Positions 24,143 through 60,066 of a stretch of 64,000 nt of DNA are shown piece after piece. The position numbers and the translations under genes were made by a program. The stretch lies in assembly GCA_963735555.1 (NCBI GenBank), contig CAVTLP010000012.1, positions 90,504 through 154,503 on the forward strand. The letters are read 5' to 3'. Below the pieces are notes generated by a model. The model worked only from the letters and a program-made list of their open reading frames with translations. It was not told the origin of the DNA and made no database searches. Every line of letters begins with the position of its first letter. Position 1 is the first letter of the stretch. This DNA is from an uncultured Acidobacteriota bacterium. Its GTDB lineage: Bacteria; Acidobacteriota; Terriglobia; Terriglobales; Acidobacteriaceae.

Positions 24143-26671
24143 ATGAGATTGAAGGAGCAGCTCTTGCGCGCGGAGAAGAATGCGTTTTACCGTCAGTCCC
24201 TCTCGATAGCCGCTTTCGGCATCGTATTGATCTCTTCGATCTTCGCCCCGTCAGCGCTCGGACAGGATTTCAAGAGACCGGATGGAAGCGTCCCTCTGCC
24301 TTTGGACTGGAGCAATCAGCACCTCATCTATACCGTAGGATTCACGGGCGAGCAGGCAACGAATATGCAGGGCGATCCGCGGTACTTCGCAGCGGCGCGC
24401 TCACACGGTAAAGCACTGGCTGATGCGAATGCTGTGCAAGGGTATCCAGCTTTCGATAGGTCGTCCGCCTTGAGACTAGGGCCTCAACCACCCCGGCGAT
24501 TTCCGATCAGCCCCAGAAGAAGGATTGGCTTGCCGTCGAATGAGATAAAAAAGGACTGGAGCGTATCCCTTGGTCCCACGGCCGGAGTCGCCACCGGCCA
24601 GTCGCCCGCGAAGTTTTCCTTCGACGTCAACGCGGCGCCGAGCTGCACCGCCGATTACGTGGTGTTTCCCGTCAATGCTTCGACCGGGTACACGCGAGCC
24701 AGTGTAGTCGGTACATTCAGCAACTCCAGCGGTAACGCGAGCGGGCAGACGGTTACGTTCACGGTAACCCCGACCGGCGGATCCTCGATACTGCTGACTT
24801 TGACCGCCAGCCTCACCGTTAACACAGGGCTGAACTTTCAGGTTTTCGCATCAGGAGGTTCGGCCAACGCGACCGCCTCTGCAACCAATCTGGCGGCCGC
24901 GATCAATCGCAATCTCAATGCCACATCCGCGGGCCGCATCGTGGCGATTGCATCGACCAACACCGTCACCGTCTATACGCTCACGCCGGGGAGCCGGGTA
25001 ACCCTGAGTCCCCCCAGTGAAAATGTGGCCAATTTCTCCTTTGGGAGTGTCTCTGCCGGTGCCAACGGCGCTCAGGCCAACATCGTCGGACTCAATAATC
25101 TGTACAGCGGGAGTGGAACACCCTTCTGCACGGGTAAGACCTTTCCAACGTTTATCTTTTCCTACGCCTCCGGCGCCGGAGCCGTTACCACCTCGCCCGT
25201 CATCTCGCTCGACGGCACCAAGACTGCCTATATCGAGAACGCTCCGTCCATCGGCACCATCCTGCACGTATTGACCTTTGGCAGCGGCTCCACCGAGTAT
25301 GGAACCTGCGCCAATAGCGGCACCGCCTTGCCGACCTGCGCAATCCATCCGGCCGTCCCGGGCAGCACCGCCGGAAGCACCGCGACGGATTTCATGGTTC
25401 CGCTGAGTTTACCCACCCTGGGCATTGCGGCAACAGATACCTACTCGGCTCCCTTCGTGAATTACGCCACCGATACCCTGTTTGTTGGAGACGATCAGGG
25501 ACACCTTTATTCCGTCACCGGAGTCTTCCAGGGCACGCCGGCGCTTGCAGCTTCGCCCTTTCCCGTCACGGTAAGCAGCGGCAACATCCTCAACTCTCCG
25601 GTGGTGGATGTAAGCGGCACCGGCGATATTTTCATTGGGGACAGCCTCTCGAATATTTTCGACTACTCTCCGGCAGGGGTTATCGTCGGAACCTCGCAAT
25701 CGATCGGCAATGGCACAAACGGGGGCATTCATGACGGCGCAATCGTTGACTCGACGAATGCGAAAGTCTATTTCACTACGAACTGCTCCGGCAGCGGTGG
25801 GAGCAGCGAACTGGCCCAGATTCCGTTCTCGGCTGCGGGCCTGGGAACTGCGATAAAGGGAAGTATCGACGGCCCGGGAGAAGGCTGCGCAGCTGGTGCC
25901 GGACCCCAGCACGTCGTCATCCCTGACAACCTGTACTACACCGTGGGAATCAGCTCGGCTACCGCCGCAAACAATGGCCACGTGGTCGTGTGCTACCAGG
26001 GTACCGGCAGCGTACGTCTGGCGCAGTGGGGATTTGTGTCAGGCAACCTTCAGACAACGGCTCAATTCGACAATAATTCCTTCCTTACCAGCGCCAGTTA
26101 CACTTGCTCGCCGCCCGTGGAGTTCTATGGCGCTACCGTGGCATACACCCCAACTGTACTGACGCAAAGCGGAACGACCGTGACTGTAACCACAGCGACA
26201 AACTCGTTTGACAGCGGACAGCTGGTTACAATCGCCGGCGTAGTTGCCGGCACGGGCGGCTGCACCGCCGCTGCGGCTGCTGCCATCAATGGGCAACAGA
26301 CCATTACGGTGCTAAGCGCAACGCGGTTTACCTTCACCAGCACGCTGTCCACGACAATCGCCAGCGGCGCTTGCACCCTGACTGGCTCATCAGCCACTGG
26401 CCCTACGCAGGATTACGTGTTCTTCGGAACTCCGCAACCGTCGGCATGGACCTTTACCTTGCCGCTTACGAGCAACGGCCAGGCTGCTCTCGCCACCAAC
26501 ACGACCAGCGTAACCGGCGGCACAAGCGGCATGATCGTGGATAACGATTCCAACAGTGGGCAGGCCTCGAGCCTTTACTTCGGCACACAGGCGACCTCAA
26601 CCACGCAGTGTGGAACAACCGCGGCCTATTGCGCGGTCAAGCTTACGCAGTCTGCAGCCGGGTTGCTGTGA
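24143..26671 (+). CDS. Large secreted Thr/Gly/Ser-rich protein, probable beta-propeller with inserted domains
   Basis: Intact 842-aa ORF with a signal peptide. Has repeated SP-V/I...xFxGD propeller-like blades (TSPVIS, SAPFVNY, NSPVVD, DGAIVD) and paired Cys. Confidence 0.75.
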   Translation: MRLKEQLLRAEKNAFYRQSLSIAAFGIVLISSIFAPSALGQDFKRPDGSVPLPLDWSNQHLIYTVGFTGEQATNMQGDPRYFAAARSHGKALADANAVQGYPAFDRSSALRLGPQPPRRFPISPRRRIGLPSNEIKKDWSVSLGPTAGVATGQSPAKFSFDVNAAPSCTADYVVFPVNASTGYTRASVVGTFSNSSGNASGQTVTFTVTPTGGSSILLTLTASLTVNTGLNFQVFASGGSANATASATNLAAAINRNLNATSAGRIVAIASTNTVTVYTLTPGSRVTLSPPSENVANFSFGSVSAGANGAQANIVGLNNLYSGSGTPFCTGKTFPTFIFSYASGAGAVTTSPVISLDGTKTAYIENAPSIGTILHVLTFGSGSTEYGTCANSGTALPTCAIHPAVPGSTAGSTATDFMVPLSLPTLGIAATDTYSAPFVNYATDTLFVGDDQGHLYSVTGVFQGTPALAASPFPVTVSSGNILNSPVVDVSGTGDIFIGDSLSNIFDYSPAGVIVGTSQSIGNGTNGGIHDGAIVDSTNAKVYFTTNCSGSGGSSELAQIPFSAAGLGTAIKGSIDGPGEGCAAGAGPQHVVIPDNLYYTVGISSATAANNGHVVVCYQGTGSVRLAQWGFVSGNLQTTAQFDNNSFLTSASYTCSPPVEFYGATVAYTPTVLTQSGTTVTVTTATNSFDSGQLVTIAGVVAGTGGCTAAAAAAINGQQTITVLSATRFTFTSTLSTTIASGACTLTGSSATGPTQDYVFFGTPQPSAWTFTLPLTSNGQAALATNTTSVTGGTSGMIVDNDSNSGQASSLYFGTQATSTTQCGTTAAYCAVKLTQSAAGLL

Positions 26672-26912
26672 TTCCCGCCCTCCCCGAGCCAGGTAGGGAA
26701 GGAGCACTGGGCGGAGATTGAGGCAGGAGATGTGCGCCGCAAGCTTCGGGGCTCTTATCTTCGCAAGTTGCCGTATAACACCAAACCGAGACACTGGCAC
26801 CCACAGGACACACCACGTTTCCAGAACCTGCCACCCTCGAAATGCGCTTTTGGCGATTTACTACTCGTCGAGAACAAGACCTGTCGCGATGGGTATGGGA
26901 AACGTTCGTGGG

Positions 26913-28649
26913 TCATTGTGTGGTGAACCCGCAGCGCTCAACCAGGGCGGCGAAACGGGAATCGGTTCGAAATTTGTCCCATTTCGGATCCACGTTAAGG
27001 AGCGCGAGGTGCACATCGTGGACGTCGAAGGCGTGGTCCAGCCAGCCCAGCGCTGTTTCCGCCTGCCCAAGGCCAGCGTGCACCAACGCTTTCGAGTACG
27101 GCGGTACATAGCGTTCCTGCGAAACCACCTCCAGCGCACTCAGGACTTCACGCGCCTCAGCGATGCGCCCAACCTTCGCAAGTATGTAGCCACGCAGCCC
27201 GATGACCTTGCTGTTTGCGCTGTTTACGGCGGCTTTCTGGAGTGCGTCCAGAGCCATATCGTTGTTACCCAGCTGCTCATACGCCATAGCGCGCTGGTAA
27301 TAACCCACCCAGAATTCGGGATTGAGAACATTCGCTCGACTCGCAAGTTCGAGTGCCGACGGGAAGTCCCGCGCGTTGAAAGCAACCTGGGCAGAGAGTG
27401 CGCAGTGGGTAGCGTCGAGAGGGTCCAGTTCTCGCGCGCGGCGGGCGGCGGCGAGACCCTCCCGGTGCCGGCCCATATGAGACAGGGCGACCCCGAGCAT
27501 GCGATGCCCCAGCGAATAGCTGGGGTCCAGCGCTATGGCTTTTTCGAGTGCCCGTTCCGCTGCTGGCCATTCCCAATCTAACCAGAATTTCATAAACCCA
27601 AATGATGTATGGGTGGCAGCGAGATCGGGGCCGGTACTGACGGCATGCGCGGCGGCTCCGCGGGCTCTCTCCCAGACCTGCTGTGGCGGAGCATCACCAT
27701 TGATGGGGCTTGCGGCAAGCGCATCCGCAAGTCCGGACCAGGCGAGAGCATATTTCGGGTCCAGCTCGGTCGCACGCGTGTACAGCTCAAGGGCTTTTCG
27801 TGTCGTCGGCGGGGAGAGCTGGTTCCAGAAATAACGCCCCCGAAGATAGAAATCGTAGGCTTCCTGATGGGACGTTTGGCGTTGCGCGAGCGCTCCTACC
27901 CGCTCAGGCGAGAGATGCAGCCGCACCTCCAGTGCAATCGCGGTACTGAGTTGACGTTGAAAGGCCAGCACGCTGGCCGGCTCACTGTCATACGATTCCC
28001 CCCAGATTTGAACCTGCTCCCTCGCGCGGATCAGCTTCGAGGTGATGCGTAACCGCACGTCCTCTGCGCGAACGGAGCTCTCCACCAAGAATGCGGCTCC
28101 AAGTTCACGTCCGATATCGGAAAGCGATTTCGTCGTTCGCTTGTAGGCCATCATGGTAGTCCGCCCAATCACGCTGATGTGTGCGGGATCGATCTGGCCG
28201 AGAGCTGCGATTACCTCCTCCGTCAACCCGTCGGCCAGATACTCGAGATCGGAACCGGCACCGAAGCTTTCGAAGGGCAACACGGCGAGGATCACGTGTG
28301 AGGCGTCTCGTAACTCCGCCCCGAGGGTCTCGACCGACGCGGTGAAGCGGTAACCGCGCTTCGAGACGGTTTCGATGACATTGGACGCGTTGGGCCCGTC
28401 ACGAAGAACCTTGCGAAGATGAGAGATCGCATGTGCGATTGCAACCTCTTCGACCATGCTGTCCTTCCACACTCGCGTCAGGAACTCTTGTTTCTCGAGC
28501 AGGCGGCCTCCGCTTTCCACCAGGAGCAACAAGGTATCGAATAGTTTCGGAGCAAGCTGTACCGGATGGCCGTCACGGAGCAATCGCTTGTCCGTCGGAA
28601 CGACGCAGAAGTTCCCGAATTTGTAGGAAACGGGTTGCGATTCTCCCAA
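26913..28649 (-). CDS. Winged-helix (CadC/OmpR-type DBD) - TolB-like - TPR transcriptional regulator
   Basis: YKFGNF..LAPKLFDTLLLLVE..ISHLRKVL..IETVSKRGYRF, LAVLPF..DGLTEEVI, EAYDFYLRGRYFW, then TPR repeats. Confidence 0.9.
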   Translation of the reverse strand: MGESQPVSYKFGNFCVVPTDKRLLRDGHPVQLAPKLFDTLLLLVESGGRLLEKQEFLTRVWKDSMVEEVAIAHAISHLRKVLRDGPNASNVIETVSKRGYRFTASVETLGAELRDASHVILAVLPFESFGAGSDLEYLADGLTEEVIAALGQIDPAHISVIGRTTMMAYKRTTKSLSDIGRELGAAFLVESSVRAEDVRLRITSKLIRAREQVQIWGESYDSEPASVLAFQRQLSTAIALEVRLHLSPERVGALAQRQTSHQEAYDFYLRGRYFWNQLSPPTTRKALELYTRATELDPKYALAWSGLADALAASPINGDAPPQQVWERARGAAAHAVSTGPDLAATHTSFGFMKFWLDWEWPAAERALEKAIALDPSYSLGHRMLGVALSHMGRHREGLAAARRARELDPLDATHCALSAQVAFNARDFPSALELASRANVLNPEFWVGYYQRAMAYEQLGNNDMALDALQKAAVNSANSKVIGLRGYILAKVGRIAEAREVLSALEVVSQERYVPPYSKALVHAGLGQAETALGWLDHAFDVHDVHLALLNVDPKWDKFRTDSRFAALVERCGFTTQ

Positions 28650-28802
28650 GTTTCCCGCCGTGGGTAGCCAGTATAGTAGCAGGTCAAATATAAGTCAGAA
28701 AACGCAACAATTTCGCTAAGACTTGGGACGAATACCGGTGCAACCATGGACATCGTCAATCGCCGAACTCGTACATAAGCCGGTCGACAGAAGGAATAAA
28801 CC

Positions 28803-29330
28803 ATGAAAGTAGTACGAAGAAGCTTTACAGCGGCCGTCGTGCCGCTGATCGCGCTCGCGGCCATGCTGTTTGGGGCGAGTTCAACCGCCGTTGCGCAGTC
28901 TGAGGAATCCGGCTATACCAGAGGCCTCGAAGGCACATGGCGCAACGGCCTCGAAGGGACATGGAATGCGCAGCTCACGGTCACCGACTGTAACAATCCG
29001 AACACGGTGATCAGGTCCTTCCCAGCCAAATTTGCGTACGCCAAAGGGGGCACGCTCACCGTCACGACCGCAGGACAACTCCCTTCGCTAAACACTGCCG
29101 GCCTGGGTGTCTGGAACCACTTGTACGGCCGCACGTACAGTGCGGTTTCCGAGGCCTTCATTTTTAACACCGCCGGAGCCTGGACGTCGACACAAAGGCT
29201 CACGCGCGTGATCGAGGTCAGTAGGGACGCGAAGACGTATACGGACATGGTTGCGCTTGAAATCCTCGACACCAAGGGAAACGTGCTGGTAACGGGCTGC
29301 GCGACGAGCGTCGCGAGTCGCCTCGAATAA
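28803..29330 (+). CDS. Hypothetical secreted beta-barrel (lipocalin-like) protein
   Basis: AAGGA RBS, signal peptide, LEGTW motif, GxW in the middle; divergent from the regulator. Confidence 0.75.
   Translation: MKVVRRSFTAAVVPLIALAAMLFGASSTAVAQSEESGYTRGLEGTWRNGLEGTWNAQLTVTDCNNPNTVIRSFPAKFAYAKGGTLTVTTAGQLPSLNTAGLGVWNHLYGRTYSAVSEAFIFNTAGAWTSTQRLTRVIEVSRDAKTYTDMVALEILDTKGNVLVTGCATSVASRLE
28923..28964 (+). repeat. 24-nt tandem duplication (GLEGTW x2)
   Basis: ggcctcgaaggcacatgg at 28923 and ggcctcgaagggacatgg at 28947. Confidence 0.85.
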
Positions 29331-29616
29331 GTGGGTGGAAGATTGGTCAGAGTGGAAGCCAATGAAATCAATGAAGGGGCGAGGTGGCTGGCCTCTTTTT
29401 TATTTCCACCAAGAGGACCGTTCGCATCATCAAGGTGTTTAGGTCGGTTGACTGGCAACCCAGAAGATCTGCTTCGTGTCTGAAAGGTCCCCGATTTGCG
29501 GTAGTTCGGCTCTCAGCCTGCATTACAGGCAAATTCACTCATTGAGGCGCGATCATGGCCCTGACCCGAGCTCCGAGCGTGCGGTCCCGACTGCTCGGAA
29601 GCGGACCCCTGATGAG

Positions 29617-29863
29617 TTGGCCGACTATTTCCCCCAATCCGCTACAATAGAAATAGAGACAAAAGCCCGCCACACACGGCGGGCTTTTCTTTGTTCCCAA
29701 AATGAGAGGGCCTCGTAGACCCTTCGAGTAACGCCTTTCTTATCTATTACTTGGGTAAAAGTACCTTGTTATGAATGAGTTGCAGATCAACCTCTCCACG
29801 AACCAGATGGAATGAATGGGTTAGGCAAAAGAGGGGGTAAAAAGGGGGAGGGGGGTGGGGGTC
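29617..29863 (+). repeat. Non-coding repeated element, copy A (promoter-like head, hairpin, 27-bp quasi-palindromes, G-run)
   Basis: 29617-29660 matches 59115-59158 at 38/44 nt. Hairpin 29661-29688; 27-mers at 29728, 29757 and 29798; G-tracts 29831-29862. Confidence 0.8.
29661..29694. terminator. Bidirectional intrinsic-terminator-like hairpin
   Basis: aaaagcccgcc-acacac-ggcgggctttt, an 11-bp stem with U-tracts on both strands. Confidence 0.75.
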
Positions 29864-29868
29864 CCAGC

Positions 29869-31590
29869 CTAACTGCTTTGCGAGGGCGAATCGCTGAGCT
29901 TTGCAAACGCCGATCGCGCATCGTGCAGACGCGGGAAGATCCACGCCGCACCGATCTCCTCCGTGAGGTGATGCCGATCCAGGTCGGCCTTCAGGTCCCA
30001 CTGAACGCGAGCGAACGCCAGCTCGACATTGCATGAAACCAGCTCCTGCTTCACACGCCGTACCACCCTTGAAGCGGTGTAGTCCACATGCGTAATGGCT
30101 TCGGCGTCGACCACCAGCCAGCGAACCTGTGCCGCCGACGGATCCACGAGGTCTCTCACCTCCTTCGCGAACTGGTTGGCGTTCGCGTAGAAGAGAGCCG
30201 CCCCGAAACGATAGATCACCAGTCCCGGCTCCGTGACGGCGCCCGGCACTGCCGGAATCAATTTCCACATCTTGCTCTCGCCGGGAATCATCACTCCGGT
30301 CGTCGGGCGATAGCTGTGGTGCACAATGCGGAGCAGCGACATCACCATCGCCAGCACGATCCCTTGCTCGACTCCCCAGAGCACGACCACGGAGGCGGTC
30401 GTCACCGCCAGCACGTACTCCCCCGGGCTCTCCAGTCGAATCGTCCGCAACCCCCGCAAATCGATCAGCCGGACCGCGATAAGGAAGACGATCGCTCCCA
30501 GCACGCAATGGGGAAGGTATTCGAGCGGCCTGGTCAGAAAGAGCAGCACCAGCGCTACGACCGCCGCGGTGGCGATCTGCGCCATCTGGCTCTGACCGCC
30601 CGAGCTCTCGACCATCGCCGTCTGCGTCGGACTTCCGTTCACCACGAACGTACCGCTCAGGGCCGCGACCGCATTGGCCGCCGAAAGGCCGACCAGGTCC
30701 CGGTTCTCGTCCAGCTCCTGATGATGGCGCTCCGCGTAGATCCGTGCCGTAGCCGCGCTCTGCGCAATGATCATCACCGCGCACGACGCCGACACCCCGA
30801 TCAGAGGCTCAGCTTCCTTCCATCCCACCCAGGCGAGGCCGAGGCGCGGCAGCCCCCCCGTCACTGGCCCGATCACGTCGATGCCATGCGCTGCGAAATG
30901 CCACCGGGCGCTCGCCGCCATCGCGGCCGCCACGGCAATGAGCGATGCCGGCATCCTCGGCCCTAGGCGCCTCAGAGCGAGGATGCCTCCCACGGTCAGC
31001 GCGGAAAGGGCCAGGGTGGGAAGTTGGACCTGGGGCAGGTGGTGAAAAATCTCCGCAAGTTGCACGATCGAATTCCGGGAATGCACCTGAATCCCCAGCA
31101 TCTCGCCGAGAACAGCGATCCCGACTTGAAATCCTACCCCGGTCAGGAACCCGACCAGCACCGTCTGCGAGAGGAAATCGGCGAGAAATCCCAGCCTCAG
31201 CAGCCTCGCCAGCAGCAGGAAGCAAGCGGTCAGAAGCGCAACCGTGGCCGCCAATGCCATGTATTTCGCACTTCCCGAGGGAGCCGTCCCGGAGATCCCG
31301 CCGGCAAGAATCGCTGCCGTTGCCGAGTCGGCGGCGACCACCAGGTACCGCGACGAACCGAACGTTGCGAACGCCACCAGCGGCAGCAGCAGAGTGTAGA
31401 GCCCGGTTACAACCGGTGTCCCGGCGATCCTGGTGTAACCAAGCGCCTGCGGAATATTGACCGCTGCCAGTTGTATCCCGGCGAGGGCGTCGCGGATCAC
31501 GCCCGCGCGGCTCAGTGGCCGCACGCTTTGGAAGAAGCCATCCCATGCGAACTTCCACCGGGACCCGTTTGTCTGCGTCCGATCGTCCAC
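29869..31590 (-). CDS. SulP family inorganic anion transporter with STAS domain
   Basis: DALAGI..NIPQALGY, GLYTLLLP, GFLTGVG, VVNGSPTQT; C-terminal STAS (YRFGAALFYANA, VVDAEAITHVD). Confidence 0.95.
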   Translation of the reverse strand: MDDRTQTNGSRWKFAWDGFFQSVRPLSRAGVIRDALAGIQLAAVNIPQALGYTRIAGTPVVTGLYTLLLPLVAFATFGSSRYLVVAADSATAAILAGGISGTAPSGSAKYMALAATVALLTACFLLLARLLRLGFLADFLSQTVLVGFLTGVGFQVGIAVLGEMLGIQVHSRNSIVQLAEIFHHLPQVQLPTLALSALTVGGILALRRLGPRMPASLIAVAAAMAASARWHFAAHGIDVIGPVTGGLPRLGLAWVGWKEAEPLIGVSASCAVMIIAQSAATARIYAERHHQELDENRDLVGLSAANAVAALSGTFVVNGSPTQTAMVESSGGQSQMAQIATAAVVALVLLFLTRPLEYLPHCVLGAIVFLIAVRLIDLRGLRTIRLESPGEYVLAVTTASVVVLWGVEQGIVLAMVMSLLRIVHHSYRPTTGVMIPGESKMWKLIPAVPGAVTEPGLVIYRFGAALFYANANQFAKEVRDLVDPSAAQVRWLVVDAEAITHVDYTASRVVRRVKQELVSCNVELAFARVQWDLKADLDRHHLTEEIGAAWIFPRLHDARSAFAKLSDSPSQSS

Positions 31591-58834: not shown

Positions 58835-58879
58835 GATATACGCTTTCCAGTCATGTGAAGATAGTAGCGAAAGGCGGGT

Positions 58880-59050
58880 GGCCCATCCCTTGATTTCTCT
58901 CGAACCAGCCACGAACGGGAGGGCCCCACGAGCGAACCGGGGTCCTCGGCAAGCCAGGTTTTTGCTCGCTGGAGTGGGAAAGCGAAGGAGGAAGGAACAG
59001 ATCGAGTTCCCGCGGGGCGTCTCTACATCTCGCTTCTGAGATGTGGGAAG
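58880..59050. repeat. Cluster of REP-like short palindromic elements
   Basis: gggtggcccatcc, ggggtcctcggcaagc..gctcgctggagtggg and the hairpin acatctc-gcttct-gagatgt(ggg), all intergenic. Confidence 0.45.
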
Positions 59051-59114
59051 ATGCGCAAGCCAAGCCGACCGCGTTCGAATCTTAAGTTGGCTAATCCCTA
59101 ATGGCTGCCTTTTT

Positions 59115-59416
59115 TTGGCCGACAATTTCGCCAAACCAGCTACAATGGAAATAGAGACGACAAAGAGCCTGGCTATAACTAGCCGGGCTCTTTGTCTTGA
59201 CACTCACAAATCACACAAAATAAATGACTTATTGTAAGTGATTGATTCTCTAGGTAACAGCTGTAAGTTACACAAAACAATGGTACAGCGACCGAGGTAT
59301 CCCGTAACCATTTTGAAATGAAACGGTTACGGGATCTACCAACCCGAGGTATGACTTAAACCATTTGTTATGAAACGATTACGAAAATGTATAAAAATGG
59401 GGGGAAGGGTACCCCC
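59115..59416 (+). repeat. Non-coding repeated element, copy B
   Basis: Head homologous to 29617-29660; 17-bp hairpin 59159-59196; 27-mers near 59206, 59234, 59263, 59304 and 59356; ends ggggggaagggtaccccc. Confidence 0.8.
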
Positions 59417-59442: not shown

Positions 59443-60066
59443 TTACCGCTGACGCTCGCGCATCCTTGCCACAAGAGCGCGCAGCGCCTTCCCGCGATGA
59501 CTGAGCCGATGTTTCGTAGCCAGGTCGATCTCGGCCATGGTCTTGCCTACCTCAGGTAGATAAAAGAGTGGATCGTATCCGAAGCCCCCTGCGCCTCGCG
59601 GAATGGTGACGATTTCGCCCTCTACCGTGCCTTCGGCGGTGACCAGGCAGTCTCCGTCGCGCGCGGCAGCCAGAACGCACCGATACCGCGCCCTGCGTTC
59701 CTCGCCGGACACGACCTTGAGCCGGCGAAGTAGATACAGATTGTTCCGCTCATCGGTATTTTCGTCCGTATGAGTTACGAAGCCCGCGTCATCGGCATAG
59801 CGGGCCGAACGGACACCCGGTTCGCCGCCCAGGGCATCGACTTCCAGCCCCGAATCATCTGCGAGGACAATCTCGCCGGGCAGGTATCGGCTGTAATAGG
59901 CAGCCTTCACCCGCGCATTGCCCTCGAAGTCGGGCTCGTCTTCGGCCGGAGCGGTAATATCTCTAAGCCCCGGCAGAGGATGAATGGCAACGCCTTCCGC
60001 CTCTGCCGCCACGGTGAAGTCACGTAGCTTGCCCGGATTCGTGGTGGCAACGTACAGGGTTGTCAA
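59443..60066 (-). CDS. rdgB: Non-canonical purine NTP pyrophosphatase (RdgB/HAM1)
   Basis: ATTNPGKLRD, FEGNARVKA, ADDSGLEVDALGGEPGVRSAR, GFGYDPLF, SHRGKAL. Confidence 0.96.
   Translation of the reverse strand: MTTLYVATTNPGKLRDFTVAAEAEGVAIHPLPGLRDITAPAEDEPDFEGNARVKAAYYSRYLPGEIVLADDSGLEVDALGGEPGVRSARYADDAGFVTHTDENTDERNNLYLLRRLKVVSGEERRARYRCVLAAARDGDCLVTAEGTVEGEIVTIPRGAGGFGYDPLFYLPEVGKTMAEIDLATKHRLSHRGKALRALVARMRERQR

Follow-up and report, generated by a model that had tools for sequence, protein, structure and literature searches.

Dispersed promoter-terminator cassettes with IHF-like arrays in Acidobacteriaceae as possible pac-like loading sites for the exchange of accessory DNA

Acidobacteria are abundant in soil and have large accessory genomes, and their routes of DNA exchange are largely unknown. 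Small, multicopy, intergenic repeats such as MITEs, Correia elements and REP-IHF units (BIME/RIB) often lie behind genes, some of them with an IHF site and a promoter; IHF sites are also usual in oriT, and in the small terminase TerS the usual DNA-binding domain is an HTH rather than a zinc finger. Several reports describe systems that come close to the locus presented here. T4-type phages carry PeSL cassettes, about 50 dispersed units of a sigma70-like promoter and a terminator that accompany variable genes and are shuffled by recombination (PMC2839356). Generalized transduction makes use of pseudo-pac sites, chance look-alikes of about 20 bp (PMC10996546), and gene transfer agents of the RcGTA type package at random and encode TerS within their cluster (PMC6854486). 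The oligomerization core of TerS is a helical hairpin (PMC9611059), and the IHF consensus is WATCARNNNNTTR (PMC8421141). Prophages and mobile elements have been reported in Acidobacteria, and the accessible part of PMC5900883 holds no cassette repeat. Our literature searches, whose coverage left out most subscription papers, returned no description of the cassette family presented below, and nothing relevant on homology-facilitated illegitimate recombination.

The window (the whole stretch of 64,000 nucleotides analysed here, from the source genome G000) holds two copies, A and B, of an element for which an original prediction had been made from the letters alone. The heads of the two copies match at 38 of 44 positions (29617-29660 against 59115-59158), and the hairpin, the three 27-mers and the G-tract described for copy A were all recovered. 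Copy B, which had been thought to preserve the pairing of the copy A hairpin with a changed sequence, instead has a different and longer hairpin. The features of both copies and their neighbours are as follows.

24143..29330, no strand assigned: head-side variable block of copy A, four ORFs including a TPR regulator, with a single other gene instead in G016
29617..29660, plus strand: head of copy A, conserved TTGGCCGA box and promoter-like region, truncated so that the TGTCAA left end is missing
29643..29648, plus strand: -10-like hexamer TACAAT of copy A
29661..29688, plus strand: G+C hairpin AAAAGCCCGCC..GGCGGGCTTTT of copy A, with an A-run on its 5' side and a T-run on its 3' side
29728..29754, plus strand: 27-mer site 1 of copy A (PWM score 19.3 bits)
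29757..29783, plus strand: 27-mer site 2 of copy A, TATGAATGAGTTG (22.4 bits; IHF-consensus-like)
29798..29824, plus strand: 27-mer site 3 of copy A, AATGAATGGGTTA (13.9 bits)
29833..29865, plus strand: tail of copy A, purine-rich G-tract (29833-29861 proper) and TCCC end
29869..31590, minus strand: SulP sulfate permease gene, conserved tail-side anchor whose stop adjoins tail A
59115..59158, plus strand: head of copy B, with -10-like TACAAT at 59141-59146 and without the TGTCAA left end
59159..59196, plus strand: hairpin of copy B, 17-bp stem
59304..59382, plus strand: strong 27-mer sites of copy B (59304-59330 and 59356-59382; a weak one at 59206-59232)
59399..59414, plus strand: G-tract and TACCC end of copy B, facing a third copy 7.2 kb off
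59443..60066, minus strand: Ham1/RdgB gene, whose stop adjoins tail B

The G-tract of copy A ends 7 nt from the stop of the SulP ORF, and its hairpin, with the flanking A-run and T-run, is likely a bidirectional terminator. Both copies have lost the TGTCAA left end, and the array of copy B does not align with that of copy A. The partner of copy B lies just outside the window (G000:C12:156794, minus strand), the two flanking rdgB-motAB. Just 5' of head A, a stretch of about 70 bp (29525-29601) that is single-copy in G000 has 79-82% identity to DNA upstream of non-orthologous heads in G016 and another relative. Short REP-like repeats are clustered at 58860-59100, between an acyltransferase gene and head B, with further copies upstream of other heads.

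An iterated profile of the head found 53 copies at E<0.01 in G000, which is 58% complete; two weaker ones were accepted by eye and two were dropped, and the family is counted at 55 copies; the reversed genome contained no head. The family is a dispersed non-coding one, as had been proposed, and further copies, looked for genome-wide and across Acidobacteriota, were found in genomes of the genus. Among the 34 genus genomes compared (the other G-numbered genomes are those of relatives), the head pattern was matched 22-80 times in 13, 7-8 times in 2 and 0-2 times in 19, and it was found in none of 300 other genomes of the phylum and in no viral contig. The 80 matches listed, of at least 105 among genome contigs, were titled Acidobacteriaceae or Acidobacteria; Silvibacterium, Alloacidobacterium and one Terriglobales were among the matches listed. 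The assertion that the element is neither CRISPR, a typical REP nor an IS held, and it belongs to no described Rfam family, with no Rfam match at gathering score in the 64-kb window. Terminal inverted repeats at both ends, as in a MITE or IS, were absent: the left end is TGTCAA, the right end is the G-tract/TACCC, and only the subterminal 27-mers are inverted.

Statistics on the anatomy were taken from 180 cassettes with a tail, in G000 and relatives. The head-to-tail length in G000 is mostly 197-357 bp, a G-tract was recovered by pattern in 51 of the 55 copies, and one cassette holds a 1.2-kb cargo gene inside. The predicted sigma70-like -10 box was borne out as TA[N]AAT at a fixed position in 163 of the 180 heads, as was the terminator-like hairpin that follows it, with a T-run in 154; the 84 nt after the -10 box have a median fold of -29 kcal/mol, compared with -19 for shuffled sequence. 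Promoter-like and terminator-like parts are, as far as can be read from the letters, present in most copies. Where tails were scored, 58 of 108 had TA-centred palindromic arms of at least 3 bp.

The array consists of 27-mers with the consensus gTAAgTCcttTgGAATCAATcAGTTAC, found at 656 sites as against about 6 in shuffles. Their spacings group at 29-30, 39-42 and 50-51 bp, which places the sites on one helical face; degenerate units so spaced do not form the identical repeats with constant-length spacers of a CRISPR array. In G000, 148 of the 156 top PWM sites were at cassettes, on which the PWM had been trained. The right half of the 27-mer resembles the IHF consensus: 63 of the 656 sites match the E. 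coli consensus exactly and 329 with at most one mismatch, the consensus C being replaced by G in 276, and with C or G allowed at position 4 there were 224 forward, 30 reverse and 3 shuffled matches. This frequent G in the conserved right half is a deviation from the E. coli IHF consensus. IHF-beta is present in the genus and passes the NCBIfam cut-off in G022. The original prediction of an array of dyad protein-binding sites thus stood in one part, as the phased spacing is binding-site-like, but not in the other, as the sites are asymmetric and IHF-consensus-like: in the three 27-mers of copy A, self-complementarity extends to no more than 8, 10 and 8 of the 27 positions, and the correlation of the family PWM with its own reverse complement was 0.28 (null 0.04 +/- 0.15).

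An intact left end, TGTCAA, lies 52-75 nt before the head, with nothing conserved beyond it, in 31 of 203 heads (18 of 55 in G000; the chance expectation is about 0.002 per cassette), and a reverse 27-mer stands at a fixed offset of 27-30 nt in 17 of these 31. We rejected TGTCAA as the -35 element of an outward promoter, a -10 partner at spacers of 12-22 being found in only 0-1 of the 31.

Some cassettes keep a C3H zinc-finger ORF, after the hairpin or after the G-tract, so that the full order is TGTCAA end, promoter, terminator, array, G-tract/TACCC and then, where kept, the C3H gene. Some copies carry this gene, and C3H loci have cassette parts upstream; the window elements are therefore gene-less derivatives, and the cassette is the upstream region, without the gene itself, of a C3H zinc-finger gene that is multicopy in Acidobacteriaceae. 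This gene family (2,208 clusters at 50% identity) was found in 33 of the 34 genus genomes, in 11 of 17 other genomes of the family and, weakly, in 1 of 103 other genomes of the class. Of 28 C3H loci in the genus, 21 had the promoter and hairpin, 20 had TGTCAA before the -10 and 24 had a 27-mer upstream; some of these loci are in genomes that the head pattern does not match and whose heads have another sequence. Outside the genus, a G-tract lay at most 350 nt upstream of the C3H gene in 17 of 29 loci, compared with 1 of 29 in the downstream control and 11 of 29 in a reverse-strand control that is inflated by the palindromic tail. Two copies of the long C3H gene, at G000:C29:129.0-130.1 kb and C12:62.6 kb (L260, L261), are not intact: one carries a frameshift and one an internal deletion. 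When full-length, this form includes a further Cys/His cluster, its second, and a helical block at the C terminus that is conserved.

Six C3H cassettes in G002/G021 are 90-96% identical from TGTCAA to a ragged point past the stop codon. These recently spread copies have a sharp TGTCAA end and neither array nor G-tract before the gene, which indicates that spreading without the tail is possible and that the tail is, to judge from these copies, not needed for it. An RBS and ATG follow the hairpin in gene-bearing copies. The G-tract as a mere ribosome site was rejected; it serves so in some gene-bearing copies, yet by eye it lies 60-150 nt before a separate start in others.

The model of the C3H protein (pLDDT 85) combines a zinc finger with a hairpin of two helices. 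When residues 45-135 were modelled in four copies, the score was 0.64, relative to 0.00 for the best control, with at least 64% agreement between runs and pLDDT of at least 62; among solved homo-pairs 20 of 30 attained the mark for self-association, and among single chains 1 of 23. In the predicted assembly each copy places its helix 2 against helix 1 of its neighbour, and the core is thereby predicted to self-associate head-to-tail like small terminases. We found no relatives of the C3H protein in viral contigs, nothing above weak scores and no TerS match in PHROGs, Pfam and NCBIfam, and no viral match at E<=0.001 with Foldseek; the best fold match had a non-specific Z of 6.8, and the fold searches returned only generic helical matches. 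All 30 matches in the ESM Atlas were unnamed Acidobacteriota clusters, and kinship with DUF5763 (0.80 in the ESM Atlas) is a lead only.

The placement of the cassettes is polar. The tail neighbour was a convergent gene in 37 of 50 cases, usually at most 40 nt from its stop (p = 0.0009, with genes called by a rough in-house caller). Adjacent cassettes less than 15 kb apart were convergent in 34 cases, divergent in 1 and on the same strand in 3. In G000, G016, G022 and G010, respectively, there were 9, 7, 10 and 8 convergent, 1, 0, 0 and 0 divergent, and 0, 1, 1 and 1 same-strand neighbours (strand shuffles, p <= 0.0004 each), the four counts not being independent, as several pairs recur as orthologues in more than one genome. 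The span of close pairs is mostly 5-15 kb. Our paper searches found no such orientation rule in any described repeat family. A KOPS/Ter-like replichore polarity was rejected upon inspection of a 1.6-Mb contig of G016, along which the strands are mixed, and an origin of the pairs from inversion by replicative transposition was rejected because one paired block keeps its order with both flanks in G000, G010 and G022. Mean gaps rise additively (33, 79 and 123 kb); a fixed headful of about 45 kb was nevertheless rejected, as the trend above 20 kb was weak in two of four genomes (rho 0.15, 0.48, 0.53 and 0.03), and we claim no size.

Conserved DNA meets variable DNA at the cassettes. The SulP gene of site A adjoins a different cassette in G016, where a single other gene stands instead of the 5.6-kb block of G000, and at site B three relatives (G016, G001 and G022) also carry cassettes. 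When 129 cassettes from relatives were compared with G000, the tail flank mapped there in 77 and the head flank in 28, a G000 cassette being also present at 37 of the 77 mapped tail flanks. None of the 37 cross-genome pairs with a common tail flank had bodies that aligned over more than 70% of their length, and 8 had a common head flank. Within genomes, the head flank was common to 21 paralog pairs and the tail flank to 1 (an IS481); gene conversion may contribute to these 21 pairs, because they come from few families of paralogous surface-protein genes. At two paralogous loci of G016, 2.2 kb of identity stops at the hairpin T-run, and recombination between copies shuffles modules. Empty sites exist, and no target duplication was seen by eye at four distinct ones, whose flanks are only 73-90% identical.

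Several neighbours of the cassettes were recorded. Large Ig-repeat surface-protein genes end about 10-35 nt before heads in G016 and G022 (L393, L395, L397-L404), and the C-terminal domains of these proteins are homogenised together with the adjoining cassette head in the same genomes. A repeat of about 1.1 kb upstream of several heads, considered as a transposase, proved to be the C-terminal domain of a surface protein. Two near-identical IS481-like elements (family assigned by eye) sit in cassette tails, within the G-tract/TACCC (L265 and L270; G016:C10 about 63.5-64.6 kb and C9 about 154.4-155.5 kb). Elements of about 2.4 kb with a tyrosine recombinase of about 305-325 aa occur at G000:C15:360-363 kb, C28:0-6.7 kb and C12:157.3 kb and in five copies in G002; they are 99-100% identical per genome, several lie on the head side of cassettes, and their ends are unrelated to TGTCAA. 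A primase-like ORF of 837 aa and its neighbours at G000:C24:51720-56021 are phage satellite- or island-like.

Our main reading is that the cassettes are dispersed pac-like loading sites that drive the exchange of accessory DNA; we give it a probability of roughly 40%, and its steps after the anatomy are inferred. In this model, IHF would bend the array, and the C3H protein would form a ring, as an analogue of the small terminase, and recruit a borrowed large terminase. The DNA would be cut near the G-tract, and packaging would run outward through the conserved block, the facing partner and the accessory DNA beyond, so that cassettes would load host DNA into phage or gene-transfer particles. 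In the recipient, the conserved block would be the homology arm, and the partner cassette and accessory DNA would replace the resident ones. A cassette would then spread only if a facing partner lay a few kb off, which would explain the pairing rule. The facing pairs, the conservation of the tail flank, the replacement of cassette bodies and the variability on the head side would all follow from this one scheme. It gives no account of how copies reach new sites. We can only tentatively suggest, further, that Acidobacteriaceae domesticated a phage packaging-start module into a chromosome-wide system, in which pac cassettes wrapped by IHF, dozens in number, would act with a ring-shaped zinc-finger adaptor. 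Through the facing arrangement each cassette would package its partner and the partner's accessory island behind a built-in homology arm, which would amount to a programmed, site-directed transduction of flexible DNA by borrowed phage or GTA motors.

The C3H gene occupies the position of terS relative to the G-tract and array. In viral contigs, the pattern of a G-tract plus 27-mer core gave 59 matches, in 25 sequence clusters, compared with 6 for a reversed-motif control. With only 1-3 ORFs scanned per cluster, terS or terL (PHROGs) lay just downstream in the same orientation in 6 of the 25 clusters (26 of the 59 loci), and 1 of 5 control clusters (L453) also had terL, such that the terminase link is not separated from the control at cluster level; terminase enrichment beyond the G-tract alone is unsupported, and the G-tract alone may mark such regions. 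The pattern was also seen at an att site (integrase/tRNA) and behind a capsid gene; other matches lay, by eye, at the ends of contigs or where gene blocks of opposite transcription meet. In viral loci L280-L301 and L413-L449, an IHF-like site followed by a G-tract was observed at terS/terL junctions, contig ends and transcription switch points, and this combination may be a general marker of phage genome termini.

A GTA-like cluster is present in 14 of the 34 genus genomes. PHROGs identified TerL and a head-tail adaptor in it, ORFs resembling portal, protease and capsid genes were assigned by eye, and no TerS was recognised; its capsid-like protein is 86-91% identical across the 14. At L486:1527-18377 (G004:C1) and L495 (G022:C22) this cluster is a conserved, single-copy, fixed locus that includes a HipA-like kinase. 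Two cassette-rich genomes that are 100% complete, G016 and G010, gave no match to the TerL and capsid of the genus, and neither did the 58% complete G000; we found no cassette at the GTA-like cluster and no C3H gene at the TerL cluster. This absence from cassette-rich genomes counts against the pac reading, as do the cluster-level terminase link (6 of 25 versus 1 of 5), the C3H family having no viral relative among the contigs searched, the zinc finger where TerS has an HTH, the recent G002/G021 copies that lack array and G-tract, and the within-genome paralogs with common head-side flanks (21 versus 1 tail-side), for which plain recombination between cassettes suffices.

The last two points fit a possible but less favoured explanation, in which the element is a one-ended, non-autonomous mobile regulatory cassette: TGTCAA and the inverted IHF-like site would be a transposon-type end moved in trans, copies behind genes would act as portable promoter/terminator pads, and accessory genes would be shuffled by recombination at such pads, much as with PeSL units in T4-type phages. 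The sharp TGTCAA end (31 of 203), which in 17 of the 31 is accompanied by a reverse 27-mer at constant distance, is consistent with this, as are the six G002/G021 copies that start at TGTCAA and end raggedly after the stop, the identity between two G016 loci that ends at the hairpin T-run, and the existence of empty sites. However, no matching second end and, by eye at empty sites, no target duplication were found, no cassette inspected contained an enzyme, and the tyrosine-recombinase elements have unrelated ends. In the 58% complete G000, a profile of the TGTCAA left end detected no transposase-linked copy. Mobility leaves the facing-only neighbours, the 3-5 phased sites and the G-tract unaccounted for. 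The mobile pad and the pac reading may both hold.

That the cassettes are chromosome insulators, in which the bidirectional terminator and an IHF-wrapped array fence short core operons from horizontally acquired DNA and selection maintains the pairs as domain boundaries, is unlikely. It would agree with the tails that adjoin the stop of a convergent gene (37 of 50, p = 0.0009), with sites conserved across species, with IHF-beta in G022 and with the concentration of top PWM sites at cassettes (148 of 156), but conserved sites carry unrelated bodies (0 of 37), the C3H gene to which the family is tied is mobile, and heads of this type number only 0-2 in 19 of the 34 genus genomes. We consider it more improbable still that the cassettes are relaxase or rolling-circle origins (oriT/oriIS mimics), with the palindromic GGGGTACCCC tail nicked and adjacent DNA moved one way; the polar behaviour and the TA-centred arms in 58 of 108 tails would suit such origins, whereas inspection of cassettes and their neighbours showed no HUH gene, the tail varies in sequence and the pairing rule is left without an explanation. 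Small RNAs of about 45 nt, from head promoter to hairpin, which the original prediction had offered as an sRNA cassette family, are very improbable despite the -10 box and terminator-like hairpin of most copies, as the hairpins vary in length and sequence, an RBS and ATG follow them in gene-bearing copies, and neither array, G-tract nor pairing is accounted for.

If the cassettes are packaging starts, they would represent a host-encoded, site-specific transduction between GTAs and lateral transduction, and about 60 predictable coordinates would be expected as start points of particle DNA. Under the mobile rival, too, they would be a cassette system for the shuffling of genes in a cellular genome that has not been described. 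MITEs, Correia elements and REP-IHF units differ from the cassettes, which have two unlike ends and a pairing rule, with no terminal inverted repeats, no target duplication seen and no cognate transposase found. PeSL cassettes share with them, at the level of sequence, the roughly 50 promoter and stem-loop copies and the shuffling by recombination; PeSL units, however, head a variable ORF in a T4-type phage, whereas the cassettes described here are chromosomal, usually face the stop of a conserved gene, and have the phased IHF-like array, G-tract, TGTCAA end, facing pairs and zinc-finger gene origin that PeSL lack. Pseudo-pac sites are far smaller than these modular cassettes of 200-350 bp, which have their own gene family and no linked cognate TerL. 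The resemblance to RcGTA lies in the conserved, single-copy cluster of head genes, TerL among them, that 14 of the 34 genus genomes have; the differences are that specific dispersed sites are proposed here and that several cassette-rich genomes yielded no such cluster. With pac/cos sites and TerS, the cassettes share an IHF-like site and G-tract before a small gene whose product has a predicted helical-hairpin core, a signature that also stands before viral terS/terL; TerS joins this core to an N-terminal HTH, and the C3H protein joins it to a zinc finger.
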